From Patescibacteria group bacterium (GTDB lineage: Bacteria > Patescibacteriota > JAHJAL01), in the NCBI GenBank assembly GCA_049322675.1, contig JBMORM010000010.1, positions 19,028 through 83,027 of the forward strand: DNA of 64,000 nucleotides, read 5' to 3'. The translations under genes were made by a program, and so were the position numbers. The notes under the pieces are model-generated. The model had not been told where the DNA came from. It worked only from the letters and a program-made list of their open reading frames with translations, and ran no database searches. The number at the start of each line of letters is the position of its first letter. Position 1 is the first letter of the stretch. Shown here piece by piece: positions 1,595 through 59,914 of this stretch.

Positions 1595-3340
1595 ATGGAA
1601 AATAAAATCTGTCGGCAGTGCGGAATAAGTTTTATTGTTTCTGACGATGATTTGAAATTTTTGGAAAAGATATCGCCGGAATTTACCCCTCCTTCGCTTG
1701 AAGCTTCGGCGAGGCAGGGAAAAAAGTATCTGATCCCCTCCCCGACTTTGTGTCCGACTTGCCGATTGCAAAGAAGATTGGCGCATCGCAACGAGAGAAA
1801 GCTTTACAAAAGAAAGTGTGATGCGACCGGAAAAGATATTGTTTCTTTGTATTCTCCCAACAAGCCCTACAAGGTTTTTGATCAAGAATATTGGTGGAGC
1901 GATAAATGGGAGGCGATGGATTTTGGTCAAGATTATGATTTTTCCCGGCCGTTCTTTGAGCAATTTAAAGAACTTTATGATCGGGTGCCAAAGTTGAATA
2001 TCATCAATTCCGGGAGCGAGAACAGCGAATATACCAACCTGGCGGCCTACAATAAAAATTGTTACATGATTGTGGAGAGTAGCAACAATGAGAATTGTTA
2101 CTATGATTACTGGATTCAATTGTCAAAAAATTTGGTTGATTCTTGTTATGCTCACCAATCGGAGATTGGATATTGGAACTCGGATATTCGGGAGGGGTAT
2201 AATTTGCAATTTTGCCGCAAGGCGATAAATTGCCGAGATAGTTTTTTTCTGGAAGATAGTGTCGGGTGTAAAAATTGTTTTGCCGGCACAAATTTACACA
2301 ATAAGGAATATTACTTATTTAATCAGCCGGCGAATAAAGAGCAATTTGAGGAAACGTTGCAAATTTGGCAACAAGGAAATCAGGAGGAGAGGAGAGCTTT
2401 GTATGAAAAAATAAATAAGTTTTTTAGTGAGCAACCATTAAAGGCCGGTAGGATAGTTAATTCGGAAAATTGTGTTGGCGACTATATTTCCGACAGCAAA
2501 GATTGCTATATGTGTTTTGACGCGAGTGAAAGCGAAAGCTGCCGTTATTGTTCTGACGTAATGCGTAATGTAAAAGAGGCGATGGACACTTCGACGGCTG
2601 GTTTAGATTGTGAATTGATGTATGAATGTTTGAATACGGCGATCAATGTTTACAAAATGGCTTTTACCAATGTCTGCTGGACCAATTTGAAAAATGTTTT
2701 ATACAGTATGTATTGCTACAAATCCGAAGATATTTTTGGTTGTGTCGGCTTGCGCGACCATAAACAATACTGCATTTTGAATAAGCAATATACGAAAGAA
2801 GAATATGAAAGACTAATACCAAATATCATCGGACATATGATCTCAACTGGTGAATGGGGAGAGTTTTTTCCGATGAATGTCTCGGCTTACGGTTATAACG
2901 AAACTGTAGCACAAGATCATTTTGTTTTAACAAAAGATGAGGCCGAAAAATTGGGGGCAAACTGGGAGGATGGAGATTTTACACCGAAATATGATGGTGA
3001 AGTTTATAAGCCAAAGCCAATCGACTTATTCCAATTGAAAAATAATCCCCAAGCACAAACAGAAATTGATCTCTGTTTGAAAGGAATAATAAAATGCGAG
3101 AAATCAGGGCGACCTTTCAAGATTTTGCCACAAGAACTGGCTTTTTATATTGAAAATAATATTGAATTACCCAAAATTCATCCGGATGAGAGACATTTGG
3201 AGAGAATCAATAATAGGCATCATTACAAGTTGGAGAAAATTAATTGTGATAATTGCGGGCAAGAAATATCTACTTCTTTACCAAAGAATATTGGTAGAAA
3301 AATATATTGTGAGGAATGTTGGCAGAAATCTTTTTTGTAG
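1595..3340 (+). CDS. Cys-rich protein with N- and C-terminal zinc-ribbon-like CxxC pairs and internal NC/SxxC repeats (paralog A)
   Basis: 581 aa. The N-terminus has CRQCG...CPTCRLQRRLAHRNERKLYKRKC and the C-terminus CEKSG...CDNCG...YCEECW. The centre carries about 20-aa repeats rich in N-C and S-x-x-C. It is a clear paralog of 6329..8107 (same N-terminal CxxC..RNER..YKRKC..YSP and C-terminal ELAFY..RH..YCEEC blocks). Confidence 0.75.
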   Translation: MENKICRQCGISFIVSDDDLKFLEKISPEFTPPSLEASARQGKKYLIPSPTLCPTCRLQRRLAHRNERKLYKRKCDATGKDIVSLYSPNKPYKVFDQEYWWSDKWEAMDFGQDYDFSRPFFEQFKELYDRVPKLNIINSGSENSEYTNLAAYNKNCYMIVESSNNENCYYDYWIQLSKNLVDSCYAHQSEIGYWNSDIREGYNLQFCRKAINCRDSFFLEDSVGCKNCFAGTNLHNKEYYLFNQPANKEQFEETLQIWQQGNQEERRALYEKINKFFSEQPLKAGRIVNSENCVGDYISDSKDCYMCFDASESESCRYCSDVMRNVKEAMDTSTAGLDCELMYECLNTAINVYKMAFTNVCWTNLKNVLYSMYCYKSEDIFGCVGLRDHKQYCILNKQYTKEEYERLIPNIIGHMISTGEWGEFFPMNVSAYGYNETVAQDHFVLTKDEAEKLGANWEDGDFTPKYDGEVYKPKPIDLFQLKNNPQAQTEIDLCLKGIIKCEKSGRPFKILPQELAFYIENNIELPKIHPDERHLERINNRHHYKLEKINCDNCGQEISTSLPKNIGRKIYCEECWQKSFL

Positions 3341-3482
3341 GGGGCGAGTCGCGACTCGCCCGTACGATAATTAATTCGTAGGGGCGAGGTCCCCTCGCTC
3401 GACCGATGTCATAATCGAAGGATCGGACCCATGTGTCCGCCAAATGTCCTAACCGTAGGGGCGGGTTTTAAACCCGCCCGTC
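3338..3482. repeat. Cluster of GC-rich REP-like palindromes (GTAGGGGCGAG...CTCGCCC type), 3-4 units
   Basis: The units are tagggggcgagtcgcgactcgcccgtacga, gtaggggcgaggtcccctcgctcg, ggacccatgtgtccgcc and gtaggggcgggttttaaacccgcccg. Each is a perfect or near-perfect hairpin. The same ordered cluster recurs at 6097..6276, and the gene's stop codon TAG lies inside the first unit. Confidence 0.85.
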
Positions 3483-3611
3483 AATAACATAAAAATTAAA
3501 TAATTGTATTCATTGCATTCAATGCAATTACATTTTAAAAAATAGCCTTAAAATTAAAAAATATAATTCGATTCAAGGAGATCTGTTTAAGAAAATGGTA
3601 CATCTGATTAT

Positions 3612-3693
3612 TTTTTCTTTCTGGATCCTGGATATTGGAGCGCCGTGCCTCGCCGAGCAGGCGGGGATTACCTTCCAGTTCCAGGATGACACA
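3612..3693. mobile_element. Partial (right-half) copy of the ~125-bp double-hairpin MITE-like element
   Basis: ctggatcctggatattggagcg...ccttccagttccaggatgacaca matches the right hairpin and terminal inverted repeat of the full copies at 8110, 18991, 19831, 38550, 46460 and 54810. Confidence 0.7.
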
Positions 3694-6079: not shown

Positions 6080-6096
6080 TAAAAAATAATATCATC

Positions 6097-6276
6097 GTAC
6101 GGGCGGGTAAACCCCGCCCGTACGATATCAATTGTAGGGGCGAGGTCCCCTCGCCCGACGTCAATCCGTAAGGGCGGACCCATGTGTCCGCCCTTTTTTG
6201 TTGGAGATTACAAAATGATACAATTGATTTATTGATTATTAATGAATTGTAGGGGCAGGTCATGACCTGCCCATCA
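6097..6276. repeat. REP-like palindrome cluster (duplicate of the 3338..3482 cluster)
   Basis: The units are cgtacgggcgggtaaaccccgcccgtacga, gtaggggcgaggtcccctcgcccg, gggcggacccatgtgtccgccc and gtaggggcaggtcatgacctgccc. The unit order matches the 3338 cluster, and it is followed by the same aaaaattaaataat tract. Confidence 0.85.
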
Positions 6277-6328: not shown

Positions 6329-8107
6329 TTGAATTTTATGGACAAAGCCGATCAATTGATTTTGGAACAATTAAATAAAGAAGTGCCTCATGAGCGGACT
6401 TGTCGGGTGTGTGGGGGGGAATGGAAAATTGAACAGGATGATTTGATTTTTTTAAAAAAATTTATTGTGCCGGTTCCAAAAATATGTCCGAGCTGCAGCA
6501 TGCGGCAAAAATTGGCTTGGCGTAATGAGCGAGTTTTTTACCGACGAAAATGCAGTGCAACAAGTAAAGAAATTGTCTCAATTTATTCTCCAGACAAAGA
6601 TTATCAAGTTTTTGATAAGGATTTTTACGCCAATGAAAATAACTGGAATCCCTTGGACTACGTAATGAATTACGATTCGGCAGAGAGCTTTTTTGTCCAG
6701 TTCGCTCAACTGATGAAGTTGGTACCTTATGCTAGTCTAATCACGGTAACTAACAAAGCGGATAACTGCGAATACGTCAATCATGGTGGTTGGAGTAAGA
6801 ATTGTTATATGATTTCGATGGCAGCCTACAACGAAAACTGCCTTTTTGGTAAAAATATTATGCATAGTCGCGATTGTGTTGAAAATTATAATATTAATAA
6901 ATGTGAAAGTTGTTACGAAAATATAAATGGCTTGAATAATAATAATTGTCAATTTCTCTACAATTCACAGGATTGTTTCGATTGTCATTTTTCGGCTGAA
7001 CTTAAAAATTGCCAGAATTGTTTGCTGTGTTTTAATTTGCTTGATAAAAAATATTGCGTGCGGAACAAACAAGTAACACATGAAGAGTTTGAACAGGAGA
7101 GACAGCGATTACAATTTACTGAATTGAAAGCAGAGTTTTTTCAGATGAGGGCCAGACAAGTTGTTAAGTTTGCTAATATCGTCAATTCGGAAAATTGTTC
7201 GGGTGACTACATTAATAATTCCAAAGATAGCCTGTATTGTTTTGGGGTGGAAGGATATGAAAGTTGTAAATATTGCTTTGATGGCGCCGGCGGATTATTT
7301 GATTGCTATAACATTTATTCCAGTGGCAATAAAGCCTCGCTGGAATATAATTCATTGGCAGCTCCTGGATCATATAATGTGATTTGTTCCAGTGCGGTGG
7401 GAAATAATTCACAGCGGATTGGTTATAGTTTGCACTGTTATGGCTGCTCAGATATTTTTGGTTGTATAGGTTTGAAGAATAAACAGTACTGTGTTTTGAA
7501 TAAACAATATTCGAAACAAGAATATGAAAGAATAGTCGAAGAAATAAAACTTGATATGCTTTCAAGAGATGAGTACGGAGAATTTTTTCCGGCAAATATA
7601 AGTTGGTTTGGTTACAATGAAACAATTGCTCAAGAATATTTCCCTCTAAATAAAGAGGAGGCCCAAAAACTTGGTTTCAAATGGAGTGGTTATGAGGCAG
7701 AAGGTAAATTTGACGGTCCATTTTATGAGCCATTGGAAATAAAAGAATATTTTAATGAACAAAAAGCGAAAGAATTATTGGCTGGAATTTTACAATGTGA
7801 AGTAACCGGAAAACCATACAAAATAATGGGGCCGGAGTTGGCTTTTTATTTGAAACATAATATTCCGATTCCTAAACGTTCGCCGAATCAACGGCATAAA
7901 GATCGGATGGCGTTGAAGAATCCGTATAAGCTTTGGCATCGACAATGTATGTGCGAGGGACAATTGACAATTAACAGAAATCAATTAACAGGGGAAAATG
8001 GGTGTCAGCATCAAGGCAGGTGTATAAATGAATTTGAGACAACTTATGCGCCGGAGCGGACGGAGAAAGTTTATTGTGAGGAGTGTTATCGGAAGAGTGT
8101 TTTATAA
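6329..8107 (+). CDS. Cys-rich zinc-ribbon repeat protein (paralog B of 1595..3340)
   Basis: 592 aa. It shares with 1595..3340 the N-terminal CxxC...CPSC..RQKLAWRNERVFYRRKC..IVSIYSP block, the internal NC/SxxC repeats, the KQYC(V/I)LNKQY(S/T)K(Q/E)EYER block, and the C-terminal ELAFY...RH...VYCEECYRKS. Confidence 0.75.
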   Translation: MNFMDKADQLILEQLNKEVPHERTCRVCGGEWKIEQDDLIFLKKFIVPVPKICPSCSMRQKLAWRNERVFYRRKCSATSKEIVSIYSPDKDYQVFDKDFYANENNWNPLDYVMNYDSAESFFVQFAQLMKLVPYASLITVTNKADNCEYVNHGGWSKNCYMISMAAYNENCLFGKNIMHSRDCVENYNINKCESCYENINGLNNNNCQFLYNSQDCFDCHFSAELKNCQNCLLCFNLLDKKYCVRNKQVTHEEFEQERQRLQFTELKAEFFQMRARQVVKFANIVNSENCSGDYINNSKDSLYCFGVEGYESCKYCFDGAGGLFDCYNIYSSGNKASLEYNSLAAPGSYNVICSSAVGNNSQRIGYSLHCYGCSDIFGCIGLKNKQYCVLNKQYSKQEYERIVEEIKLDMLSRDEYGEFFPANISWFGYNETIAQEYFPLNKEEAQKLGFKWSGYEAEGKFDGPFYEPLEIKEYFNEQKAKELLAGILQCEVTGKPYKIMGPELAFYLKHNIPIPKRSPNQRHKDRMALKNPYKLWHRQCMCEGQLTINRNQLTGENGCQHQGRCINEFETTYAPERTEKVYCEECYRKSVL

Positions 8108-8109
8108 AT

Positions 8110-8341
8110 TTCAAACTCTTTGAAACTCTTAGAAACACTTACAAACTCTTTTAAACTGTGCCGGATGTCACTTCGGAGCCGGAAGTGTAATCATATTCCG
8201 ACATCTAGAATCCATTTCGATATTTTTTTCTGGATCCTGGATATTGAAGCGGATTACCTTTCAGTTCCAGGATGACGACAGTCATTTTTTTGGTTTTTAA
8301 ACGTTTTAAAGAGTTTGTAAGGGTTTATAAGAGTTTGTATT
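8110..8341. mobile_element. Full-length MITE-like element: ~125-bp double-hairpin core (8158..8284) flanked by ~35-bp terminal inverted repeats (AAACTCTT-containing)
   Basis: The left TIR is caaactctttgaaactcttagaaacacttacaaactcttttaaac and the right TIR is gtttaaaagagtttgtaagggtttataagagtttg. The core has two hairpins (ggagccggaagtg...ccgacatctagaatcc and ggatcctggatattgaagcg...cagttccaggatgac). No ORF is present. The same architecture is found at 46460..46735. Confidence 0.8.
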
Positions 8342-8411: not shown

Positions 8412-10172
8412 ATGTTTCGAACACATACTTGCGGGGAGTTAAATAAAGAAAATGCCGGCCAAAAAGTAACTCTGTCCGGTTGGGTCAATAAAATGCGTAA
8501 TTTTGGCGGGTTGATATTTGTTGATTTGCGGGATCGTTATGGGATTACTCAGATAAAAATCGAACCGGAACAGGCGGAATTGGTTGAGTTGGCCAAGGAG
8601 ATTGGGAATGAATATGTGGTAAAAGTGGAAGGGACGGTGGGAACGAGACCCGGCAAGGAAGGAAATAAAAATATGGCGACGGGTGAGATCGAAGTAGTAG
8701 CAGAGAAGATGGAAATACTAAGTCAGGCCAAAGTGCCGCCGTTTGAGATTTTTGCGACGGACAAAGAAGAGCCGGCCGAGGAGTTGCGTTTGAAATATCG
8801 GTTTTTGGATTTGCGACGGGAGAAGATGCAGTACAACATTGCCTTTAGAGCCAAAGTGATTCGAATGATTCGAGATTTTATGGACGAACGCGAGTATATC
8901 CATATTGAAACTCCGATTCTCACCTCGTCTTCGCCGGAAGGGGCGCGGGATTTTTTGGTTCCTTCTCGTCTGCATCCGGGAAAGTTTTATGCCCTACCCC
9001 AGGCGCCGCAGCAATTTAAACAATTGTTGATGGTGGCCGGATTTGATAAATATTATCAGATTGCCGCTTGTATGCGCGATGAAGATCCGCGAGCGGATCG
9101 CTCGCCGGGGGAATTTTACCAGCTCGACGCGGAAACAAGTTTTAAGACTTCCAAAGAATTTCAAGACGAGATGGAACCCATGTTTATCCAATTGACAGAG
9201 AAAATGGCCGGGAAAAAAGTGAAAGAAAAACCATTTCCGCGAATTCCGTATATTGAAGCACTGGATAAATATGGCTCGGACAAACCGGATTTGCGTTATG
9301 AAATGGCCTTGATTGATCTGACTCACTGGGCCAAGGAGACTGATTTTAAAGTTTTCAATAGCGCGGATTGCGTCAAAGCTTTGGTAGTAGATGGAGCGGA
9401 CAAATTGTCGCGCAAAGATATTGATACTGATTTGGGTGAACTGGCTAAAAAAATGGGGGCGAAAGGTTTGGCGTGGTTGAAATACAATGATGGAAAGTAT
9501 GATGGCGGTATTGCCAAATTTTTTAATGAGAAACAATTGACTGAGTTGGCGGAAAAATTGAAACTGACCAATAATCAATTAATTCTTTTTGTAGCCGATG
9601 AATATTCTGTGGTTATCGAATCTTTGGGTAAAGTCAGAAATAGAGTGGCGGAAAAAATGAATTTGATCGATCCCGACTTGATTGCCTGGGCCTGGATTGT
9701 TGATTTTCCGATGTATGAAAAAAATAAGCAAACCGGCAAGATAGATTTTTCTCACAATCCTTTTTCGATGCCCCAAGGCGGGATGAAATCGTTGGAAAAA
9801 TTGGATCCATTGAAAATCGTGGCCGATCAATATGATGTGGTTGCCAACGGATTTGAGATGGCATCCGGAGCGGTGAGAAATTATAATCCGGATATTTTGC
9901 ATAAAGTATTTAAAATCGTCGGTTATGGACCGGAAGTTGTCAAAAAGAAATTTGGTGGAATGTTGAACGCTTTTTCTTACGGCGCGCCACCGCACTGTGG
10001 TTTTGCCTTCGGGATCGAGAGAATGACAGCGATTTTGTTGGGATTGAATCAAATAAAAGACGTTGTCGCTTTTCCAAAAAACAATCAGGCACAGGATTTG
10101 CTCATGAACGCTCCGAGCGAAGTGAGCGATGAACAGTTGAAAGAGTTGGGGATTGAGATTCGGAAAAAATAA
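8412..10172 (+). CDS. aspS: Aspartyl-tRNA synthetase
   Basis: 586 aa. Class II aaRS signatures: N-terminal OB fold ([26 protein letters not shown]), [83 protein letters not shown], and C-terminal [24 protein letters not shown]. Confidence 0.95.
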   Translation: [586 protein letters not shown]

Positions 10173-17957: not shown

Positions 17958-18875
17958 ATGGAAAAAGTAATAATTATCGGTTCGGGGCCGGCGGCGATGA
18001 CGGCGGCGATTTATACCGGGAGAGCGGAGTTGAAGCCGTTGGTGATTGCCGGGGTGCAGTGGGGCGGATTGCTGATGTGGACAACCTGTGTAGAAAATTA
18101 CCCGGGTTTTCCGGATGGCGTGATGGGACCGGAACTCATGATGCGTTGCAAACAACAAGCGGAAAAATTTGGTGCCAGGTTTATTTTGGACAATGTGGCG
18201 GAAGTTGATTTCAAGAGTTCACCTTTCAAAGTAAAAGTGGGAGACAAGTGGGAAGAAGCGGAATCGATCATTATTGGTGCAGGAACGAAACCGAGAACTT
18301 TGCGTTTACCTAGAGAAAAAGAGTTTATCGGACGCGGTTTGTCAGTCTGCGCCACTTGTGATGGCGCGTTGTTCAAAGAAAAAGATGTGATCGTGGTTGG
18401 TGGCGGGGATAGTGCGATGGAAGAGGCTAATTTTTTAAGTAAGTTTGCTAAAAGCGTCACTGTTTTAGTGCGTAGCGACAAGGTGAGAGCAAGTAAGATA
18501 ATGCTGGAACGTTCAGAAGCAAATCAAAAAATAAAGATTATGTACAATACCGAAGTGATTGAATATCTGGGGGACAAGGCTTTGGCGGGAGTTAAAATAA
18601 TTAATAACAAAACTCAAGAACAATCCGAATTGCCGGCAAATGGATTGTTCTTGGCGATCGGTCACGTGCCAACAACGGAAATTTTTCAGGGGCAATTGCC
18701 GATGGACGAATTGGGATACTTGAAGAAAGAAAAAAATAATATGTCCTCTATCGAAGGGGTATTTGTTTGCGGAGACGTGGAAGACGGGCGATACAGACAG
18801 GCGATCGTGGCAGCCGGCGATGGCTGCAAAGCGGCGTTGGATACGATTAGGTGGCTGGAGGGGAAGGAAAAATAA
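17958..18875 (+). CDS. trxB: Thioredoxin-disulfide reductase
   Basis: 305 aa. FAD-binding GSGPAAMTAAIY, redox-active CATC (GRGLSVCATCDG), NADPH-binding VIVVGGGDSAMEEANFL, and C-terminal VFVCGDV..YRQAIVAAGDGC. Confidence 0.95.
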   Translation: MEKVIIIGSGPAAMTAAIYTGRAELKPLVIAGVQWGGLLMWTTCVENYPGFPDGVMGPELMMRCKQQAEKFGARFILDNVAEVDFKSSPFKVKVGDKWEEAESIIIGAGTKPRTLRLPREKEFIGRGLSVCATCDGALFKEKDVIVVGGGDSAMEEANFLSKFAKSVTVLVRSDKVRASKIMLERSEANQKIKIMYNTEVIEYLGDKALAGVKIINNKTQEQSELPANGLFLAIGHVPTTEIFQGQLPMDELGYLKKEKNNMSSIEGVFVCGDVEDGRYRQAIVAAGDGCKAALDTIRWLEGKEK

Positions 18876-18968
18876 CAAATTTCCAATTCTCAATTTTCAA
18901 TTTCCAAACGATATTTTGTTGGGATATTAGGAAAAGATATTAAACAAATTTTTGGAATTGAAAATTAG
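18876..18968. repeat. AATTTCCAA/TTGGAAATT heptad-repeat dyad element (family 2)
   Basis: tttccaattctcaattttcaatttccaaacgatattttgttgggatattaggaaaa...tttttggaattgaaaatt gives a left arm of TTCCAA-type heptads, a central (A)TTTGTTGG, and a right arm of GGAAAT-type heptads. Confidence 0.7.
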
Positions 18969-18990
18969 TTATTGTATTTCAAATCAAGGC

Positions 18991-19116
18991 GTCATTCTGG
19001 AGCCGAAAGCGTATTCGCGCTTCGACATCCAGAATCCAGAAAGAAAAGAATAAAATATAGAAATGGATCCTGGATATTGAAGCGCCCAGTAGGGCTTTCA
19101 GTTCCAGGATGACACA
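18991..19116. mobile_element. MITE-like double-hairpin element (core copy)
   Basis: gtcattctggagccgaaagcgtattcgcgcttcgacatccagaatccagaaag...ggatcctggatattgaagcgcccagtagggctttcagttccaggatgacac. Its ends are inverted repeats of each other (GTCATTCTGGA / TCCAGGATGAC). Confidence 0.8.
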
Positions 19117-19167
19117 GAAAGAGTTATTAAACATTGAAAATTTAATGAAATTTGGTAGTTTCCAGTA

Positions 19168-19806
19168 GTGACTAGCTCCGTGAGTGGGGAAGTTGAAAAT
19201 TATTTTGACTGTAATATTATTGATCAATCTTCGTTAATATCTATGGATGAAAGTAATCAAATAGATTTACAAATGGAGCAGGAATTGGTGGAAAGAGCCA
19301 AGACGGACGATTTGGCTTTTGAGCAATTGTACAATCTGTATTTTCCGAAAATATATGGGTTTGTTTACAAGCGGGTTGGCCAAAAACAGATTTGCGAAGA
19401 TATAGTATCGGAAGTGTTTATGAAAGTTTTTACCAACCTCAAGGATTATCGGGATCAAGGGATGTCTTTTGGTTGTTGGGTTTACAAGATTGCGACCAAC
19501 AAATTGATTGATTACTATCGAAGCGGTAAAAAGCAAATGGTGGTGGGAGTGGAAATGATGGAAAATATCGGGTCGAAAGAAAACATTGGGGAGCAAACAG
19601 CCAACAAGATGGAAGTGGAGGAGATTCAAACAGTTATTTCCACTCTTGCCGAAAATTATCAACAGATTATAAATTTAAAATTTTTTGCGGAACTAAGCAA
19701 TCAGGAGATCGCGAAGATTTTGAAAATTTCGGAGAATAATGCTGGGGTAATTATTTTTAGGGCGTTGAAGAAGTTTAGGGAGGAATACGGGAAAAAGAAT
19801 TTATAA
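19168..19806 (+). CDS. ECF-type RNA polymerase sigma-70 family factor
   Basis: Region 2 (VERAKTDDLAFEQLYNLYFPKIYGFVYKRVG..EDIVSEVFMKVFTNLKDY..FGCWVYKIATNKLIDYYR) and region 4 (INLKFFAELSNQEIAKILKISENNAGVIIFRALKKFRE). The true start may be the internal Met at 19243 or 19273. Confidence 0.85.
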   Translation: MTSSVSGEVENYFDCNIIDQSSLISMDESNQIDLQMEQELVERAKTDDLAFEQLYNLYFPKIYGFVYKRVGQKQICEDIVSEVFMKVFTNLKDYRDQGMSFGCWVYKIATNKLIDYYRSGKKQMVVGVEMMENIGSKENIGEQTANKMEVEEIQTVISTLAENYQQIINLKFFAELSNQEIAKILKISENNAGVIIFRALKKFREEYGKKNL

Positions 19807-19830
19807 TTTTCAATTTTCAATAAAGAAGAT

Positions 19831-19951
19831 GTCATTCTGGAGCCGAAAGTGTAATCACGTTTCGACATCCAGAATCCAGAAAGAAAAAATTATTGAAATG
19901 GATCCTGGATATCGAAGTGCCCATTAGGGCTTTCGGTTCCAGGATGACACA
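19831..19951. mobile_element. MITE-like double-hairpin element (core copy)
   Basis: gtcattctggagccgaaagtgtaatcacgtttcgacatccagaatccagaaag...ggatcctggatatcgaagtgcccattagggctttcggttccaggatgacac. Confidence 0.8.
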
Positions 19952-20003
19952 AAGACAAGGAAGTATTGAAAATTGAAAATTATAAATTGAAAATTTAATA
20001 AAC

Positions 20004-34975: not shown

Positions 34976-34977
34976 AG

Positions 34978-35087
34978 AGCAATTTCCAATTTCCAATTCT
35001 CAATTTCCAAAAAATATTTTGTTGGAATATTGGGAAATTGGTTATTGGAAATTTATTGGAAACTGGAAATTGGTTATTGGAAATTTT
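34978..35087. repeat. AATTTCCAA/TTGGAAATT heptad-repeat dyad element (family 2)
   Basis: caatttccaatttccaattctcaatttccaaaaaatattttgttggaatattgggaaattggttattggaaatttattggaaactggaaattggttattggaaatttt lies immediately upstream of the ClpC-like gene start. Confidence 0.8.
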
Positions 35088-37772: not shown

Positions 37773-37806
37773 CAATTTCCAATTCTCAATTTCCAATTTC
37801 CAAATA
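37773..37806. repeat. Heptad-repeat element (family 2, short)
   Basis: caatttccaattctcaatttccaatttccaaatat. Confidence 0.6.
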
Positions 37807-38446
37807 TATTTCGAGGGGATCATATAAAACTTAGCAAACATATCAAACCTAGCAAACTTAACAAAATTTTTAAAAAATACAGCCGAAGGGCTGTTTTTTT
37901 AGAGTTCGGACACAACTTGAATGTTTACACTTTTAACTTATCACCTCACACGGGATCTGTTGCAAGCCCGTAAGGTAAGAGGCTCCTACTCGATCGTGGC
38001 CGGAGAGGACGGCGTAAACCGGGCCGCAGGCGAGGTTGATTTGAAACAATTTGATCCGGCTGGAATTTTTGTTGGGACTGAAAATTGTTTCAATATTCAT
38101 GGGAAATTGCGGGATAGTAATTATTTGTTGAAAGAGATTGAGAAAATGTTGTTTTTTGTAATCCAACAAGCGACGATCGGACAAAATTCTATTTACCCCT
38201 ACCCAACTATATGCGACATCCCGGTTGGTTGATTGTTGTGAATTGATGGAAATGGGGCGAAAGGAATATTGTCTGACTCGATGCCGAAGTTGACGCAGTC
38301 GCGTGGCAAAGTCGTTGGTAAGAGTCAGGGGTTGATCGGCCTGTATAACTTCAATTTGTAAACACAGACTCTTGTATATTTCCAGGCGGGAAAGCCGGTT
38401 TTTGGCGAGATTGTTTAATTTGATAGATTCGAGGGAAGACATAAGA

Positions 38447-38545
38447 CAATTTTTAATTTTCAATTTTTCCCCTCACGGGGACCAGCTGCTGCCGGTAATT
38501 TTCAATCAATTTTCAATGTTTCAATTTCACAATTTTCAAACAAAA
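38447..38545. repeat. Left arm of a family-2 heptad element, interrupted by a MITE copy
   Basis: caatttttaattttcaatttttcccctcacggggaccagctgctgccggtaattttcaatcaattttcaatgtttcaatttcacaattttcaaacaaa. The right arm lies at 38688..38735 beyond the MITE. The ccctcacgggga-ccagctgctg segment recurs reverse-complemented at 63300..63340. Confidence 0.7.
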
Positions 38546-38549
38546 AGAT

Positions 38550-38674
38550 GTCATTCTGGAGCCGAAAGCGTAATCGCGTTTAGACATCCAGAATCCAGAA
38601 AGAAAAAATTTAATAAATTAAGGAAATGGATCCTGGATATTGGAGCGGATTACCTTCCAGTTCCAGGATGACAC
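38550..38674. mobile_element. MITE-like double-hairpin element nested inside a family-2 heptad element
   Basis: gtcattctggagccgaaagcgtaatcgcgtttagacatccagaatccagaaag...ggatcctggatattggagcggattaccttccagttccaggatgacac. Confidence 0.8.
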
Positions 38675-38732
38675 AATACATTATTATCATTGGAAATTTA
38701 TTGGAAATTGAGCCTTGGAAATTGGAAATTTT

Positions 38733-39512
38733 TTACTCAAAATCTATATCTTCCAAATCCCAAGGTCGTTCTTGGCGAATATAATTGAAAATGGGAGCCA
38801 ATCTTAGTTTCCAGGGAGTCAGAAGGGCTTCCCAGATGATTTTGTTGCTCATTTTGGATTGGCCGAAGGTGCGATCGACAAAGGTGATGGGGATTTCTTT
38901 GAGGCGCCAGCCTTTTTGCCAGGCTTTGTAGTGCATTTCGATTTGAAAGGCGTAACCTTCGGAGACGACATCATCCAAATTAATTGATTGCAAGACTTCA
39001 CGACGGAAACATTTGAAACCGGCGGTGGTGTCGTGCAGGGGCAAGCCGGTTACTAGGCGAACATACAGGCTGGCAAAGAAACTTAGTAAAAATCTAAAGA
39101 CGGGCCAGTTGACCAAGCGGCCGCCCTTGATATAACGGGAACCGATAACCAAATCATTGTTTTCAATGTGAAGAAAAAAGTTTTCCAGTGAGGCCGGGTC
39201 GTGGGAAAAATCAGCGTCCATCTCCATGATGTAATCAAAATCATGTTTGAGGGCGTATTTGAAACCCAATTTGTAAGCTGTGCCCAAGCCAAGTTTGCCC
39301 GGACGTTGGATCAAAATTAAGTTTGAATATTGCGATTGGAGATTTTTTACGATAGTGGCGGTACCGTCAGGCGAATTGTCGTCGATCACCAAGACATAAA
39401 CATCCGGAACCATGGTAAATATCTCTGCCAGCAAATCGACGATGTTGTCTTTTTCGTTGTAAGTGGGGACGATGACGATTTTTTTATTTGTTTTTGTTTT
39501 AACTGCTTCCAT
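38733..39512 (-). CDS. GT2 polyprenyl-phosphate mannose/glycose synthase (DPM1-like)
   Basis: 259 aa. KKIVIVPTYNEKDNIVDLL, VLVIDDNSPDGTATIV, YIMEMDADFSHDP and LVIGSRYIKGG are canonical dolichol/undecaprenyl-phosphate mannosyltransferase-family motifs. Confidence 0.9.
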   Translation of the reverse strand: MEAVKTKTNKKIVIVPTYNEKDNIVDLLAEIFTMVPDVYVLVIDDNSPDGTATIVKNLQSQYSNLILIQRPGKLGLGTAYKLGFKYALKHDFDYIMEMDADFSHDPASLENFFLHIENNDLVIGSRYIKGGRLVNWPVFRFLLSFFASLYVRLVTGLPLHDTTAGFKCFRREVLQSINLDDVVSEGYAFQIEMHYKAWQKGWRLKEIPITFVDRTFGQSKMSNKIIWEALLTPWKLRLAPIFNYIRQERPWDLEDIDFE

Positions 39513-42424: not shown

Positions 42425-42605
42425 TTTATTATTTTGAGACAAATTTCCAAGGATCAATTTCCAATTTCCATTAAATTTCCAATGACCAATTTTCAAACAA
42501 ATAAAGAAACAATATAATTCCATATTTCTACAAGGTTATAATTGTTTGGAAATTGGAAATTGAGCCTTTTTTGGAAACTGGAAATTGGAAATTGGAAATT
42601 AATAA
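42425..42605. repeat. Family-2 heptad-repeat dyad element (full length)
   Basis: ...caatttccaatttccattaaatttccaatgaccaattttcaaacaaataaag...ataattgtttggaaattggaaattgagccttttttggaaactggaaattggaaattggaaatt has left TTCCAA arms, a central TTCAAACAAAT...ATTGTTTGG dyad, and right GGAAATT arms. Confidence 0.8.
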
Positions 42606-43279
42606 TTTATATTCGGATATTTCGGTCGGGCTTTAATGGCCAGAAGCAGCCCGAGGTTGAACCATTTTTCTTCCAAGATTTCGTAACCGATAAATTCCAT
42701 CAGGTGGCGTAATTTGCTGCCGTCGAAACGCTGGACGTGGGAATCGTCCCAGACTCCCCCACCGAGGTTGCCGGGCAAGCGGGTCCAGATTTCCCAGCCA
42801 AGACGAAAATGCAGGTTTTCCGCCGGAACCAAAACAATAACTTGTCCGTCCGGCTTGACCATGCGTTTCATATCTTGCAGGATTTCTACCGGATTTAAAA
42901 CGTGCTCCAAAGTTTCTAAAATCGTAACTGTATCAAAACTTTGATCATCAAATGGAAATTGGTCACTGGCGGCGTCATAGACGGAAAAATCGATGTGAGG
43001 ATATTTTTGACTGGCGTATTGGATAGCGTCAGGAGAAATGTCGATTCCGGTAATCTGAGCATCGGTGTATTTTGACAATTCATTGGTAAAAGTACCGCCG
43101 GCGCAGCCAATATCCAATAATTTACCCTTTGTGCCTCGCAACATGTGACCGATTTTTTTGAAACGATGTTGGTGATAAATACGTTTGATCGGGTGTTTGG
43201 CAATACTGTCGTCATAATAATCGCCGGTAATCGCAGTGTGGATTTGGTCTAAAACTTGTTTGTTGATTTCTTTTTCCAT
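42599..43279 (-). CDS. Class I SAM-dependent methyltransferase
   Basis: 226 aa. LLDIGCAGGTFTNELSKY (motif I), ITGIDISPDAIQYA, FDTVTILETLEHVLNP and DGQVIVLVP. Confidence 0.85.
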   Translation of the reverse strand: MEKEINKQVLDQIHTAITGDYYDDSIAKHPIKRIYHQHRFKKIGHMLRGTKGKLLDIGCAGGTFTNELSKYTDAQITGIDISPDAIQYASQKYPHIDFSVYDAASDQFPFDDQSFDTVTILETLEHVLNPVEILQDMKRMVKPDGQVIVLVPAENLHFRLGWEIWTRLPGNLGGGVWDDSHVQRFDGSKLRHLMEFIGYEILEEKWFNLGLLLAIKARPKYPNINY

Positions 43280-43317
43280 TTTGATATTTATTTTATTTAT
43301 TAATTAATTTTTTATAT

Positions 43318-43456
43318 TCTATTATGCACAAATTTCCAGTTTCCAGTTTCCAAACGAATCTAATTCTCATTCAATTTCCCTGTATTTGTTTGGAAATTGT
43401 GCCTTGGAAATTTACTGGAAATTGGAAATTGATCATTGGAAATTGTATTAAAGAAT
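43318..43456. repeat. Family-2 heptad-repeat dyad element
   Basis: cacaaatttccagtttccagtttccaaacgaatct...atttgtttggaaattgtgccttggaaatttactggaaattggaaattgatcattggaaattg. Confidence 0.8.
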
Positions 43457-45574: not shown

Positions 45575-45582
45575 TTAACAAT

Positions 45583-45705
45583 TAATAAGTTTTCAATTTC
45601 CAGTTTCCAGTTTCCAAAAAAGGCTCAATTTCCAATTTTCAAACAAATGCATTCGAAATTGTATTACTACTGTGTTTGTTTGGAAATTGAGAATTGGAAA
45701 TTTAG
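45583..45705. repeat. Family-2 heptad-repeat dyad element
   Basis: tttcaatttccagtttccagtttccaaaaaaggctcaatttccaattttcaaacaaatgcattcg...gtgtttgtttggaaattgagaattggaaatttagcc. Confidence 0.8.
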
Positions 45706-45707
45706 CC

Positions 45708-46424
45708 TTAACTGTTGTGTGCTTTAACTTTTATGAAGTCAGTATGATGAAGTATGTATCGATAGCAAAATATCCAGTAAAAAATCAGCCAGCAGATGAC
45801 AAACAAAGTACTGATGTAATCGTGAAAGACGATGGAGGCCATTTCGCCAAGATAAAAGGCAATCATAGCAACTAAGCTGATGCGGACGAGATTTATAATG
45901 ATTGTTCCCAAAATTCCGATGGCGATTGTTTCCAATTTGCTATTGAGAGTAAATGGCCCTTTGAGGCCGACAAACATACTGATAAAAAGCAGAATAAAAC
46001 TTTGCCAGCCGATACAGTTCCAACTGATGAAAATATTGATAGGATTGCCGTCTTTGATGATTTGCAAACCGGTGAGACTGGAAGAAGCTTCGATGCCAAT
46101 CAGTTTGAGGGTGGAGACTACCATTTTGGCTTCAAAGGGAACGACGTGATATTGGAGAATGCGGTAAAGTTCGACTTTGCCAATGATCGTCGTGATAAAT
46201 TCATTGAAAGTACTCACAAACGGCATGACCAAAAATGTGACACAGGCCAAGATAATAATGATTTGAAAGTTGGAAAAGCTAACAGTTTTGATTTCCTCCA
46301 ATTCTCTTTCCAGATTGGTGAGACCAGTAGAAATCGCAGCCAAATTGGCTTCTCCCTTTTGTTCCTTCCGCCAAAATTTCCAGCTTTTGAGTTTAGTAAA
46401 TAGTTTATTAATTTTATTTTTCAT
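45708..46424 (-). CDS. Exosortase/archaeosortase-family-like integral membrane protein (putative sorting transpeptidase)
   Basis: Start set at Met 46424. The ORF-track extension to 46544 is translated repeat DNA. Six to eight TM helices. The candidate active-site region is NIFISWNCIGWQSFILLF...IINLVRISLVAMIAFYLGEMASIVFHDY (Cys, then Arg about 35 aa on, then His/Asp). It lies immediately downstream of a gene ending in a PEP-CTERM-like signal. Confidence 0.55.
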   Translation of the reverse strand: MKNKINKLFTKLKSWKFWRKEQKGEANLAAISTGLTNLERELEEIKTVSFSNFQIIIILACVTFLVMPFVSTFNEFITTIIGKVELYRILQYHVVPFEAKMVVSTLKLIGIEASSSLTGLQIIKDGNPINIFISWNCIGWQSFILLFISMFVGLKGPFTLNSKLETIAIGILGTIIINLVRISLVAMIAFYLGEMASIVFHDYISTLFVICWLIFYWIFCYRYILHHTDFIKVKAHNS

Positions 46425-46459
46425 ATTTGTTTTTTTGTTTTGAAATAAAATATAGTTTC

Positions 46460-46735
46460 GTGTCATCCTGGAACTGGAAGGTAATCCGCTCAAATATCCA
46501 GGATCCATCTCCTTAATTTTCAATTTATAATTTTCAATTTTCATTAAATTTTCAATGTCTCAATGAATCAATGTTTCAAACTGTGCGTCATTGAAAATTA
46601 AAAACCCTGGATTCTGGATGTCGAAGCGCGATTACGCTTTCGGCTCCAGAATGACAACATTTTTTGTCTGCTTCAATTTGATTTATTAAGTTTAAAAGAG
46701 TTTGCAAGGGTTTATAAGAGTTTCTAAGTGTTTGT
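46460..46735. mobile_element. Full-length MITE-like element (reverse orientation) with nested family-2 heptad repeats, abutting the stop codon of the GT2 gene
   Basis: gtgtcatcctggaactggaaggtaatccgctcaaatatccaggatcc ... [ttttcaatttataattttcaattttcattaaattttcaatg] ... ccctggattctggatgtcgaagcgcgattacgctttcggctccagaatgacaa, then TIR gtttaaaagagtttgcaagggtttataagagtttctaagtgtttg. The stop TAA of 46735..50703 (at 46735-46737) lies at the end of the TIR. Confidence 0.8.
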
Positions 46736-49700
46736 TATTGTTTGTTTTGTTTCTTCCTCGAATACCACCACCCAAGTAACGCCGGTACGCCTAGTAATAA
46801 AGTTGCTTCCGGAACGATAATGTGGGGGCAGGATAAAATGGAAATGCCGTTGTTGTACTCGATTACCAAGTCATCGCAGCAGCAATTGGTAGTACAGCGA
46901 GGAGAACTGGAAGAAGCGATAGCAGTGGCGCTTTGACCATTGGGACTTTTTAAGTACCAGGTAAGGTTACTGCCATTAAAATTAACCTGGAAACTGTCTA
47001 CAACGCGTCCGGGGGTAAAGGTAGCCGGTTGTCCCCGATTGATTGGCGTGGGAGTAAATTTGTTTTTACTGCCGATAGCAATGGTAAGATTACTGTTGTA
47101 CAAATTTTCGTAACCAAAATGAGCTGTGTATGTTCCGTCATTATTGGCATCGACACATTCCAAAATCGGATTGACCTTTTTGATCGGACAGACGGATTGA
47201 GCGGTAATGTGTTCGGTATCGGAATAGGCAACAATTACACCACCTTTGTATGCCCCGATGCGATAATAATAACTTTGACCTTGGACAATACCCGTGTCTG
47301 TATAGGAGATGGTAGATTGACCGGATAAATATTGATAATAACCATCTTCCGGATAGGTTAATTCGGGATCGGTAGTAGAACGAAGCAATTTGTAACCATC
47401 AATAGTTTGATCGGTGTATTTTGTCCAATTCAATTTGATACTGTTGCAGTCATTGGCGGCGGTTAAAGCGATTGTTTCCGGAACTTGGCAGTCAACATTG
47501 CCGCACAAACTAATACTTTGGATACCTTCCTGGGTGTTGGTCAGTGTCAGACCACTTCCGGATGTCAGAGTAGTTTTTGAAGTTAAGCGAGCTTTCAAGG
47601 TGAGTGTGTTATCTACAATCAAATTATTTGGAATAGTAAAACTCCAATCAAAGTCATCGTTGTAACCCGAGGAATTATTGAGAGTAGTTAAAACATTGCC
47701 ATTACTATCCATTAAGCTAAAAGTTTCGTACAAAGTGGCAACGTTACTGCCCGAAGTTATTGTGTCACCGGTCAGATCCAAATCAGTAAAATGCATTTTT
47801 AAGGAAGCATCTGAAAAATTGTCGGGAATGCCATAGATGGAATATTCAAAATCAAGATAACCACTGGAGGTCGGGACCGATCTGGTCAGAGAAACACTAT
47901 CTGATGTCGTACCTTTGGTGGGATAGATACCCGAGGTACTTGTTTTCAACGGGATATAAAAGTAGGTATCGTCTAGATAAAGACAGTTTTCACCTTGTTG
48001 ACAGGTCGGGACGACCATGGCGTGAGCGGTGGGAATAATATCCAATTTGGGAAGGATGCTTTTTTGTTCAGTTGAAGAACCAGAATCGTAGGCTACGGCA
48101 GCGTCACAGGTTACGGCGGAGCAGGTTGCCGCTGAGTCACAATCTCCTTCGGAAGAAAGATAAGTGATGGTATAAACCAATTTTCGTTTATGTTCGACGT
48201 CACAGGTGACGGCGGGACCATTGCCGAGACTAATCGTAAGAGTCGAGGGCGTACTTTGATTGATGACGTAGTTGGTGGAGGTGATGTATTGATAATCGCC
48301 GCCGCTGGCATTGACGTGACCGACGGTAAAACTATATGTTTTATTGTGTTGCGGCTTGGAAGTCAATTTTAAAGTGGTAGAATAATTGCCGGCGGAAATA
48401 CCTCCGGGGTCATTGCCGGTCGGACAAGGATCAGAATACCAACTGTAAGAGGGATTTTGACGGTTAAATTTGACCGTTTTAGGACTAGAGGCGGCAGTCG
48501 AACTCAGATAATTGGGGTTGTTCAAATAGGCCAAATCATTGCTGGCAGCGGTAATCTCAGTAGTTGCCAAATAACTGATGGAGCCGACGATGATGGCCAG
48601 AATAACAATAATAGCCATTCCGAGCCGAGGTACACGTTTTAATTCTACCCAGAAACGTCCCTTTTTCAATTCTTCAGTTTGTTTCTTTTCAAATTTATAT
48701 ATTTTTTGTTGCGCCTCAAACGATTTGGCGGTTTTGTCCAAACTCTTGTTCAATAGTTGGACATTGGCATCAATCAAATCGAGGGAGGAACCGGCCATTT
48801 GTCCTTCCATAACAGCATCGGTCACGGAGCCGGTTTTAAAAGTCCGAACCCAGGCGCCTTCATTGGGAGAGATTAAACCTTTCAAGGACGCATAGGCCAA
48901 ATGAGGAATAATATAGTAAATATATGTCAAAAACGGTAAAAAATTGTAGTCTTTATCTTCTCCTCTTTCCAGAACTAGTCCGGAAATACACATAACCGGC
49001 AGAGCCATCAAATTGGTAAAAACCAAACTCCAACCCAAAGTGGCAGTCCAGCCGGGAACTTTGATGTGGAAAATCAATTCCCCAATCACCCAGCCGATAG
49101 TACCGACGATAAAGAAGAAAGCTTGCATATAAAAAGGAGCATAGAAGATGAATTCAATTTTTTCAATTAAGGTCATATGAGGCGAGAGCATGACTTTCCA
49201 GAAATATTTTTTAACGTTCCAGGTGTGACCTTCGGCCCAGCGGATCTGTTGTCTGGCCAATTTGTTTAGGCTGTTGACACACTCACTGGGGACTCTGATT
49301 TCCGGGGTATAACCGATTTTCCAGCCATCGATATACATTCTGATAGTGAGATTCCAGTCTTCAACGATCGAGGTATAACCGTTGGGCATTTGCCAGGTAT
49401 ATTTTTCCAAGACATCACGTCGGATGATAAAAACACTACCGGCGATCATTTTCATAGCGCCCAAATGTTGTTGAGCTGTTCGTTCAATCATGTAGCCGCC
49501 GGAGAAACCAAAACGAATACCGGAGGTCACAAAGTTTTCATCTTTATTTAAAACGTGCCATTGATAACCTTGAACGGCGGCCAGATTATTTTCTTTTTCA
49601 CGAGCAAAAGTATTACCGTTTTGGGTAAAAAACTCCTTCAAGAAACTTTTTATACTTCCCGGAGGCGGAACAAAATCGGCGTCAAAGACAATGATGAAGT

Positions 49701-52844: not shown

Positions 52845-52872
52845 TGTAGGGGCGGTTCATGAACCGCCCCTA
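52845..52872. repeat. REP-like palindrome (single unit)
   Basis: gtaggggcggttcatgaaccgcccctac is a perfect hairpin, downstream of groEL. Confidence 0.85.
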
Positions 52873-52999
52873 CGATGATATTTTATTTGCAGACATGGGA
52901 CCAAAAATTGTATTTAATTAAAAACACAATCCCTCAAATCATGTCTGCGTAGGCCAGTGTATGCTTATCGGGATATTTAAGCAATACTTTTTCAAGAAA

Positions 53000-54682
<1,683 letters not shown>

Positions 54683-54744: not shown

Positions 54745-54800
54745 AATTTCCAATTTTCAATTTTCAATTTCCATTAAATTTCCAATTTTCAATTTCCAAA
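54745..54800. repeat. Family-2 heptad repeats in the groES-groEL intergenic region
   Basis: aaatttccaattttcaattttcaatttccattaaatttccaattttcaatttccaaacg. Confidence 0.7.
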
Positions 54801-54809
54801 CGAAAAAGA

Positions 54810-54932
54810 GTGTCATCCTGGAGCTGGAAGGTAATCCGCTCCAATATCCAGGATCCATTTCCTTAATTTATTTTATTTTTTTCTGGATTTAAGGATAAGA
54901 AGCGTGATTACACTTTCTTTCCAGAATGACAA
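54810..54932. mobile_element. MITE-like double-hairpin element inserted between groES and groEL
   Basis: gtgtcatcctggagctggaaggtaatccgctccaatatccaggatcc...ttctggatttaaggataagaagcgtgattacactttctttccagaatgacaa. Confidence 0.8.
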
Positions 54933-54955: not shown

Positions 54956-55243
54956 TTAATCTTTGACAATGGCGATGACATCGGATTCGGCGAGAATCAT
55001 GTATTCTTTGCCGTCGATTTTGAATTCGTCGGGAGCGTAGCGGCGGAAAATGATAATATCACCGACTTCAATAGTCATGGGGATGATTTTGCCGTTGTCA
55101 TCCCGCTTGCCCTTACCTACAGCCAATACTTTGGCTTTTTGCGGTTTTTCTTTGTCCATGGTTTCCGGGACGACAAAACCTGATTTACTGGTTTCGACAA
55201 TCGCTTCGATAAGCAGGCGATCGCCTAGAGGGAGTAGTTTCAT
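54956..55243 (-). CDS. groES: Co-chaperonin GroES (Cpn10)
   Basis: 95 aa. MKLLPLGDRLLIEAIVETSKSGFVVPETMDKEKPQKAKVLAVGKG...IIFRRYAPDEFKIDGKEYMILAESDVIAIV. Confidence 0.95.
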   Translation of the reverse strand: MKLLPLGDRLLIEAIVETSKSGFVVPETMDKEKPQKAKVLAVGKGKRDDNGKIIPMTIEVGDIIIFRRYAPDEFKIDGKEYMILAESDVIAIVKD

Positions 55244-56037: not shown

Positions 56038-56540
56038 ATGGGCAAGAAAAAACCCCGGGCGAGGACTCTATTTTATATTTTTGGTGGTGATAGAGTGCCG
56101 AATTGTGCCCGGGGTAAAAGATTTATTTAAATTTTGATTTTTTCAAAAAACCCTGACCGCTTTAATTTCGTGAATCGAAGCTCTTTTGAGATTTAATGAG
56201 CGGCGGCCAGGGTATCAAAAACCCCTTAAATCTCTCCCTTTCGAAAGAAAAGGAGAGATAAAGAGGATTGTTTTAAAAAATAATTTGAGGAAATGTCGAA
56301 AAGGAGGTAAATAGAGAAAACGACATTTCCTCAAATTTTTTCAGAAAGAAAGGATGATTTTTTATTTCAACAAACCAAACACCTGCCCTTGCTCCAAGGC
56401 AAGAAGACCTTTTAAAGGAGGGAATAATAAAATGGTCTTCAGTGAGGGGGGATTTTTTTATTTTTTCCCCGGCTTGGAGCAGATTTTTTTGGGATTTTTA
56501 AAAGGGAGGTGTTTGGTTTGGGATTTTTTGGTTTTTTATC

Positions 56541-56570
56541 GTAGGGGCGGGTTTCAAACCCGCCCCTACA
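56541..56570. repeat. REP-like palindrome
   Basis: gtaggggcgggtttcaaacccgcccctaca. Confidence 0.85.
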
Positions 56571-56687
56571 TATATTTTTTTTAAAGATCAAAATAATACC
56601 GATGAATTCATGTTTTTATCGAATCCATCAGTGATTTCATCATATCAGAAAATATTGGAATGTGCCAAAATTTGGGGGTTAATTTTG

Positions 56688-56714
56688 TTGGGGCGGGGTG
56701 ACCCCGCCCGTACA
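56688..56714. repeat. REP-like palindrome
   Basis: ggggcggggtgaccccgcccgtaca. Confidence 0.85.
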
Positions 56715-56774
56715 TTAATTATTTATTAATTTTTATTTCATTTGAAAATAATTTCGGTTTGTTAATTTGGGAAT

Positions 56775-57377: not shown

Positions 57378-57483
57378 CGTACGGGCGGGGTCTCCCCGCC
57401 CCTCCATGGTTATTTTTCCTTTCCACGTTATTTTAACCTCCTTGGGCAATCGCAATGAGGGGCGGGGAAACCCCGCCCCTACG
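57378..57483. repeat. Two REP units immediately 3' of the RAYT gene
   Basis: gtacgggcggggtctccccgcccctcc and gaggggcggggaaaccccgcccctacgg. Confidence 0.85.
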
Positions 57484-59866: not shown

Positions 59867-59914
59867 GTCAATCAAGCTGATAGACAATTGATAATTTAAT
59901 GAAATAAGAAAAAG

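Follow-up and report, generated by a model that had tools for sequence, protein, structure and literature searches.

CGTC-tagged REP hairpins with a long stem, probably REPIN-like, in a Patescibacteria genome

The CGTC-tagged repetitive extragenic palindromes (REPs) described by Di Nocera, De Gregorio and Rocco in 2013, which include dRS3 of Neisseria and RPE-4 and RPE-6 of Rickettsia, carry an unpaired CGTC or TGTC tag, a stem of 8-9 bp with A-T at positions 1 and 2, a loop of 4-5 nt (their Table 1; exceptions are mentioned) and an unpaired 3-nt tail that is mostly CCA (PMC3733652). These REPs occur mostly as head-to-head (HH) dimers with the tags outside, the units usually being 20-100 bp apart and heterodimers common; they are intergenic, lie near the 3' end of the upstream open reading frame (ORF), are without an associated transposase, and were listed for Proteobacteria, Chlorobi, Bacteroidetes, Spirochaetes and Thermotogae (PMC3733652). 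REP doublets that form hairpins had been described as REPINs by Bertels and Rainey in 2011 (PMC3116915). Here we analyse 64,000 nucleotides of Patescibacteria DNA (assembly GCA_049322675.1, contig JBMORM010000010.1, positions 19,028 to 83,027; hereafter the window), in which the original prediction saw seven copies of a novel family resembling miniature inverted-repeat transposable elements (MITEs). The repeat is probably (we would say roughly 70%) a long-stemmed variant of CGTC-tagged REP hairpins, arranged in inverted pairs and REPIN-like, in Patescibacteria. As far as we could check, this is apparently the first report of CGTC-type REPs in small-genome Patescibacteria: a literature search found no paper on both REPs and Patescibacteria, which is not proof of absence, and a search with the terminal 11-mers returned primer matches only.

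Repeats are present at all seven of the predicted places in the window, as six doublets and one singleton, and their extents can now be set exactly from tag to tag. Each doublet consists of two hairpins of ~48 nt (H1 and H2) that are reverse-complement homologues with an A-rich spacer between them; the aligned consensus of a full copy is H1 TGTCATTCTGGAGCCGAAAGYGTAATCRCGYTTCGACATCCAGAATCCAG, A-rich spacer and, on the same strand, H2 ATGGATCCTGGATATTGRAGCGGATTACCTTYCAGTTCCAGGATGACA. The H1-H2 spacer is about 15-30 nt long (~100 nt in copy E). Every unit is ordered as an unpaired YGTC tag, AT-YCTGGA, a second helix, TCCAGR-AT and an unpaired CCA tail, and in all six doublets H1 and H2 face each other with the tags outward, an HH layout also seen in loci of two related genomes, DAIRGB and JAEAMF01, and of Rickettsiaceae. 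The tag occurs in 13 of 13 window units (TGTC in 11, CGTC in 2), as does the unpaired CCA tail. The 8-bp basal stem, ATYCTGGA/TCCAGRAT, has A-T pairs at its first two positions, and in a three-genome alignment of 34 units pair 5-50 (AU) is kept in all 34 and pair 6-49 (UA) in 33. Between the stem arms lie 23-27 nt (45 nt in copy G), which form a 7-bp helix and an apex helix of 2-4 bp with a 4-nt loop, so that the whole unit measures 47-52 nt. The window units satisfy all the written rules for CGTC REPs except loop length. It is the match in tag, stem rule, tail and dimer layout to the REPs published in 2013 (PMC3733652) that argues for their identity, and the claim of a novel family does not stand.

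The first of the doublets, A (8166-8277, forward strand; H1 8166-8214, with a degenerate basal stem, and H2 8230-8277), follows ORF 6329-8107, whose stop codon is 59 nt away, and precedes aspS (8412-10172). Doublet B (18990-19114, forward; H1 18990-19038, with tag CGTC, and H2 19064-19114, with apex GCCC-AGTA-GGGC) stands between a trxB-like ORF (17958-18875) and a sigma factor gene (19168-19806), and doublet C (19830-19949, forward) starts 24 nt past the stop codon of the latter. Doublet D (38549-38673, forward) separates convergent genes. On the reverse strand are doublet E (46461-46656; H2 46461-46509, H1 46606-46656) and doublet F (54811-54931; H2 54811-54860, degenerate H1 54882-54931), the latter inside the spacer between groES (54956-55243) and groEL (53000-54664), as had been predicted. 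Singleton G (3622-3691, forward) is an H2-type hairpin alone, whose apex contains a G+C-rich insertion of 22 nt. Doublets begin 22-115 nt past a stop codon in five of six cases, and the genes of the window include aspS, a trxB-like gene, an ECF-type sigma factor, groES/groEL, GT2 and exosortase-like genes. The prediction of a non-coding, hairpin-forming, intergenic repeat that has probably spread as mobile or copied DNA is borne out. Mechanically called ORFs at 38372-38671 (forward) and, in its 5' part, 45708-46544 (reverse) cross doublets D and E, where automatic gene calling probably gives spurious or over-extended proteins.

The strict single-unit pattern GTCATYCTGGA N20-48 ATCCAGRATCC matches the window 11 times (0.00 expected from window shuffles); the degenerate H1 units of A and F are recovered by a profile search, which also shows copy G to be a lone H2 unit. 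The nearest DNA found is that of the Patescibacteria metagenome-assembled genome (MAG) DAIRGB (CTOTU29514), with ~88% coding identity, followed by JAEAMF01 (~74% identity), and both carry the H1 and H2 types of the window. A spacer motif, AGAAAGAAAAAA...AAGGAAATGG, is common to copies at different loci in the three genomes; thus, the copied unit is the whole doublet, spacer included. The window H1/H2 family is confined to a small clade: no CGTC-type unit occurs in ~97 kb of contigs whose GroEL is 77-82% identical, as against 11 in the 64-kb window.

The pattern itself is distributed widely. A scan of one genome per species gave at least 102 matching stretches with 105 distinct hits, where the estimated chance expectation is ~8 (596 Gb, two strands, 29 gap lengths, 20 fixed and 2 two-fold degenerate bases). 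These matches lie in Patescibacteria, Rickettsiaceae, other Alpha-, Beta- and Gammaproteobacteria, Chitinophagales, Cytophagales and Rhodothermales, and in contigs labelled Streptomycetaceae, Chloroflexi and others, with several in many genomes; viral contigs held one match to the module. One cluster of matches (L028, L045, L075, L095) lies within a conserved coding gene and is probably due to chance. In the 105 distinct hits from other genomes the base before GTC, which the pattern does not force, is C or T in 93, and an equally unforced A follows ATCC in 87. The inner sequence is unrelated to that of the window in almost all listed matches, and 53% of the 105 units fold with z < -2. A tag, stem and tail shared across phyla around unrelated inner helices imply a conserved partner protein. 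Tentatively, and with more doubt than conviction, the 22 conserved basal nucleotides (module YGTCATYCTGGA...TCCAGRATCCA) could be viewed as the handle for one widespread hairpin-specific protein, the inner helix being free to diverge. If that were true, a single modular family would extend across Patescibacteria, Alpha-, Beta- and Gammaproteobacteria, Bacteroidota, Rhodothermales and the contigs labelled Streptomycetaceae, Chloroflexi and others, and the mover of CGTC REPs could profitably be sought in a Patescibacteria genome of ~1 Mb, where candidate enzymes are few.

Several genomes returned by the scan have architectures of their own. On the Gammaproteobacteria chromosome OZ220716 (L009, L034, L055, L072, L087, L096) the same tag, stem and tail enclose much longer inserts, in which there are two internal hairpins, one constant (TCCTTGAGTAGTCAAGGA) and one that varies with compensating changes. 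A Rickettsiaceae MAG (L003, L035, L038, L040, L052, L079, L081-L083, L091, L094) likewise has longer inserts than the window units, its 67-nt units falling into two subtypes paired as HH heterodimers. Head-to-tail arrangement, which is called rare (PMC3733652), is represented by three units ~200-235 nt apart in a Chitinophagales MAG (L037 5522-6007) and by two units 612 nt apart with identical flanks in a Longimonas MAG (L090).

The two adjacent hairpins of the original prediction are both present, and single units as well as whole doublets fold better than shuffles (z -2.9 to -4.4). As DNA the whole doublet can form a hairpin or cruciform of ~50 bp (-20.5 kcal/mol, z = -3.8), and the minimum-energy RNA fold is the long H1:H2 hairpin in all six doublets. 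It should be emphasized that compensatory changes favour the local hairpins instead. In the alignment of 34 units from the three related genomes (window, DAIRGB and JAEAMF01), standard pairs fill 88% of the cells for the specified hairpin and 20-48% when the partners are slid; both sides change in 6 of 17 pairs, and there are 56 doubly changed cells compared with 19.8 in shuffles, a count reached by none of 500 shuffles. Part of the double changes mark the divide between H1 and H2, and each of these is one event only; within unit types, pairs 18-36 and 22-31 have varied more than once. H1 and H2 differ at stem position 3 (T/C), and the compensating A/G lies within the unit concerned, not in its partner. 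As this compensation falls inside each unit, evolution kept two local hairpins, each unit folding by itself, over the long H1:H2 hairpin. Conservation of structure, as predicted, is therefore evident within hairpins. Covariation had also been put forward as the means of separating a non-coding RNA from a MITE; it does not discriminate, as a single-stranded DNA hairpin read by an enzyme covaries too, and covariation alone cannot tell such a hairpin from one of RNA.

Two positions are mostly C.A on the tag strand, which corresponds to G.U on the opposite strand, and of the 12 window-type units tested most gain 3-5 kcal/mol when folded as the anti-tag strand, and none loses. Because H1 and H2 show this preference on opposite strands of the doublet, it cannot reflect selection on one transcript. 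Better anti-tag folding was considered as a general property of the module and rejected: the tag strand folds better in 52 of 105 units and the anti-tag strand in 36, with 17 ties (Wilcoxon p = 0.24). Sense and antisense folds of whole doublets are 0-5 kcal/mol apart with no steady sign.

Comparison with relatives gives some copies a history. The groES-groEL spacer measures 291 nt in the window, whereas four relatives have spacers of 31, 36, 44 and 49 nt; given these short versions, the array and doublet F that occupy the long one would most simply be an insertion. Two long GroEL hits, P0009 and P0010, considered as read-through of a doublet, belong to unrelated organisms and were set aside. 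Copy C has an orthologue in DAIRGB (L027) in which the rest of the doublet and the flanks are nearly identical and the inner helix of H2 reads ATTGGAGCGGATTACCTTCCAG in place of ATCGAAGTGCCCATTAGGGCTTTCGG in the window; between 19896-19949 and L027 2368-2419 helix and apex have been swapped as a block, with both arms compensating. On this alignment the swap appears best explained as an exchange (gene conversion) between repeat copies. At the site of copy B, DAIRGB (L027) is rearranged: one H2-type unit stands there in inverted orientation, together with an additional ORF of 341 codons. That ORF (L027 3119-4144, reverse), between the trxB-like and sigma factor genes, is without counterpart in the window (18876-19167); as it is bounded by the H2-type unit, its gain or loss happened at a REP unit.

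The direction from H1 to H2 follows that of the flanking genes in 10 of 11 informative independent doublets (one-sided binomial ~0.006). Concordant are window copies A, B, C, E and F together with L046, L048, L100, L118 and L125, and discordant is L126; the count leaves out D (convergent genes), L058 (divergent), L121 (uncertain gene calls), and L027 and L117, which are orthologues of C and A. GC skew is positive across the window, and gene and doublet direction both flip near 38.7 kb. The constancy of the skew while directions flip indicates, for two copies only, that the bias follows transcription and not replication. Copies A and F were scanned for promoters of the sigma-70 type and for intrinsic terminators, with nothing exceeding shuffles, and as no such site is present there the doublets are most likely carried within mRNAs. 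On the best reading the doublets are REPIN-like, non-autonomous DNA, transcribed together with the genes beside them. By analogy with GTAG-tagged REPs, REPINs and their REP-associated tyrosine transposases (RAYTs; PMC3116915), the doublets would spread as hairpin intermediates of single-stranded DNA that are the substrate of a hairpin-specific enzyme (HUH/Y1), and gene conversion between copies may keep them alike. Within an mRNA the doublet would be a stable stem-loop that may protect the upstream message, and the direction of transcription might decide either retention or insertion, as the orientation bias suggests.

The sole candidate for a hairpin-specific enzyme in the window is a RAYT-like tyrosine transposase gene (56775-57377, forward), whose action on the doublets is putative. 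Its product matches Pfam Y1_Tnp (E = 3.9e-7) and NCBIfam REP_Tyr_transpos (E = 2.8e-14; 53 bits, under the cut-off of 80), and shows the HUH (NHVHMII) and Tyr (WQRNYFERII) motifs of the IS200-type Y1 enzymes. The gene is flanked by G+C-rich GTAG-headed REPs, and two such hairpins lie in-frame inside it (hairpins at 56540-56572, 56690-56714, 57027-57059, 57130-57160, 57380-57411 and 57455-57483). A tblastn search with this protein of all fetched loci found no further copy, and among the identifiable neighbours of the seven window copies, several others of which have no Pfam match, there is no transposase.

A number of observations weigh against the identification as REPIN-like CGTC-tagged REPs. 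The published loop is of 4-5 nt and here it is replaced by a second helix of 23-27 nt. No enzyme is tied to the doublets, the only RAYT of the window being flanked by the other, GTAG, type of REP; an all-against-all BLAST of nearby ORFs found no recurrent transposase within 2 kb of 102 loci, where only housekeeping genes recur, and the 2013 study found no transposase for CGTC REPs either (PMC3733652). The orientation bias rests on few copies, one of them discordant (L126). Among the sequences compared, no clean pair of filled and empty sites at high identity was available to define the insertion boundaries. Finally, the orthologue of copy A in JAEAMF01 (L117) is ~92% identical and has the same site-specific spacer, adjacent coding DNA being 72-78% identical, and such conservation fits selfish DNA no better than it fits a host function.

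It could be argued from this last point that the doublets are cis-acting RNA structures, stem-loops formed in the mRNA that would act on the message upstream, by stabilising or processing it, or else tune the gene downstream, their repeat nature being secondary. This is the main rival, although we consider it unlikely. The copies are inside transcription units, as illustrated by copy F in a groES-groEL spacer that holds no promoter-like or terminator-like site; their orientation follows gene direction in 10 of 11 cases and not the sign of the GC skew; copy A is conserved above the neighbouring coding DNA; and E. coli REPs protect the mRNA upstream of them. The protection of mRNA by E. coli REPs is discussed by Di Nocera and colleagues (PMC3733652). 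Folding energies point both ways, for the sense transcript presents H2 in the orientation that folds better (-22.0 versus -18.4 kcal/mol) but H1 in the one that folds worse (-15.1 versus -17.5 kcal/mol), and the strand asymmetry tracks each unit's own tag and not the transcript. No Rfam 15 family covers the doublets at the gathering threshold, nor at E up to 10, the window passing for tRNA-Val only; the best sub-threshold matches, at copies B and C, are to models of plant and animal miRNA hairpins (15-23 bits). The neighbouring genes are functionally unrelated, and a tag, stem and tail shared by unrelated phyla around unrelated inner helices suggest recognition of the base of the hairpin by a protein. 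Close relatives, moreover, lack the doublet between groES and groEL and, in the ~97 kb compared, have no doublets at all, so that any role in mRNA would be non-essential.

Far less probable is a classical MITE, that is, a deletion derivative of an insertion sequence (IS) with terminal inverted repeats (TIRs) to which a DDE transposase binds, moving the element and creating target-site duplications (TSDs). The element is indeed short, non-coding, multicopy and intergenic, its ends are inverted repeats, and copy A has inverted arrays on either side as well. The inverted repeat, however, is the entire palindromic unit and not a terminal 15-30 bp; the ends predicted as mutual inverted repeats are inverted with respect to each other, but they are not TIRs, as the whole of H2 reverse-complements H1. 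The outer TIRs ascribed to the two longest copies are arrays of the decamer AAACYCTTNN, a separate repeat family with both arms at copy A only and one at E; arrays of this kind are missing from four of the six doublets, and related ones stand alone elsewhere. Insertion-site duplications, which had been suggested as a check, are not convincing at any doublet: five of six have no direct repeat of >=4 nt within 12 nt of their ends, and copy C has a 5-nt A-rich match. Hairpins without a partner occur (copy G, L007 twice, L116 and L120), and neither the window nor 128 loci yielded an IS with matching GTGTCATCCTGGA ends. The label MITE-like is thus withdrawn. We give equally little credence to a DNA structural site, either bound or cleaved by gyrase or a nucleoid protein or acting as a cruciform that relieves supercoiling behind transcribed genes, a role proposed for the bacterial interspersed mosaic elements (BIMEs) of E. 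coli: the ~50-bp hairpin or cruciform, the long hairpin of all six RNA folds, the position of copies downstream of genes, and a basal stem, tag and tail conserved in many phyla, as would suit a conserved host protein, all speak for it, but H1 and H2 each compensate internally rather than with one another, there is no known candidate for the protein, and the absence of the family from close relatives shows that it is not a general requirement of the chromosome.

CGTC-type doublets share the window with other repeats. At copy A the left decamer array (8107-8157, forward), with four units of AAACYCTTNN, faces an inverted right array (8290-8339, reverse), and at doublet E a lone array (46689-46739, reverse) stands on the H1 side without a partner arm opposite; in L117 (JAEAMF01) the left array at the copy A site has two units compared with four in the window. 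Arrays of the heptamer AATTTYC form another separate family, present in many intergenic spacers as inverted pairs that make A+T-rich palindromes. They occur at 18878-18913, 19963-19995, 34976-35086, 37774-37801, 38497-38540, 38689-38740, 42437-42608, 43294-43444, 45581-45704, 46510-46606, 54745-54804, 59741-59869 and 63188-63403. Some of the palindromes are empty (59741-59799/59811-59869, with 11 nt between the arms) and others have a CGTC doublet at their centre. The nesting of the two families seen by the original prediction is real: doublets C and D are central in palindromes of AATTTYC arrays (AATTTTC at 19800-19822 and 19963-19995 for C; 38497-38540 and 38689-38740 for D), and an AATTTTC array at 46510-46606 widens the spacer of E to ~100 nt. 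Arrays also lie beside doublets B and F, the latter with AATTTCC at 54745-54804. The copy said to abut the stop codon of the GT2 gene (38733-39512) is D; an AATTTCC array does abut it, but the doublet itself ends 59 nt away. REP dimers within longer palindromes have been reported for other species (PMC3733652).

A third repeat family consists of G+C-rich palindromes, CGTAGGGGCGGGG-N3-4-CCCCGCCCCTACG, that are classical GTAG-tagged REPs and are clustered (3340-3490, 6085-6166, 52845-52877, 56540-57483, 59524-59626 and 60443-60558); these are probably the cognate repeats of the RAYT at 56775-57377. The ORF upstream of copy A has a paralogue: 1595-3340 and 6329-8107 (581 and 592 codons) contain direct repeats, 2760-2815 and 7479-7534, that are 88% identical. 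The former has a weak C-terminal match to a treble-clef zinc finger, and both are otherwise without a Pfam match; L117 keeps the gene neighbourhood of these ORFs in a relative.

The repeats that take up the majority of the intergenic spacers in this small genome now have a name and a set of rules. Patescibacteria join the groups with CGTC-type REPs, and the 'loop' of such a REP is evidently able to hold a whole extra helix. The natural compensatory changes add data showing that each unit folds alone. Which enzyme copies CGTC REPs is a question posed in 2013, and it can now be asked in a genome with a short list of candidates.

Compared with known systems, the doublets are most distant from bacterial MITEs (Correia/NEMIS, RUP, ERIC and Nezha), which they resemble in being ~120 nt long, non-coding, intergenic, co-transcribed and of inverted symmetry; MITEs carry TIRs of 15-30 bp that match an IS, and TSDs, whereas the doublets have neither and their units also occur singly. 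Like the REPs and BIMEs of E. coli they are palindromic units of alternating orientation in intergenic, transcribed space, for which mRNA protection and DNA topology are among the proposed roles. In contrast, BIMEs have GTAG heads and short G+C-rich stems, neither of which is seen in the doublets, and their partner proteins (gyrase, IHF, Pol I and TnpA-REP) include none tied to the doublets of the window. With REPINs (PMC3116915) they share two inverted REPs and a spacer as the copied unit, the capacity to fold as one long hairpin in single-stranded DNA or mRNA, singlets that resemble decayed remnants, and a lack of TSDs. REPINs, however, are GTAG-type, and each of their families has a cognate RAYT flanked by the same REPs, whereas the only RAYT in the 64-kb window is flanked by another REP family and compensation favours two local hairpins over a single long one. 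The CGTC-tagged REPs are the closest relatives: the window has six HH heterodimers and a singleton, with an 8-bp stem that starts with AT, a YGTC tag and a CCA tail, which are intergenic near the 3' ends of upstream genes, without a flanking transposase and sometimes within longer palindromes, in a Patescibacteria host outside the phyla listed in 2013 (PMC3733652). The doublets are no new kind of system, but an ordinary type of element in a new structural variant and in a phylum not listed before.

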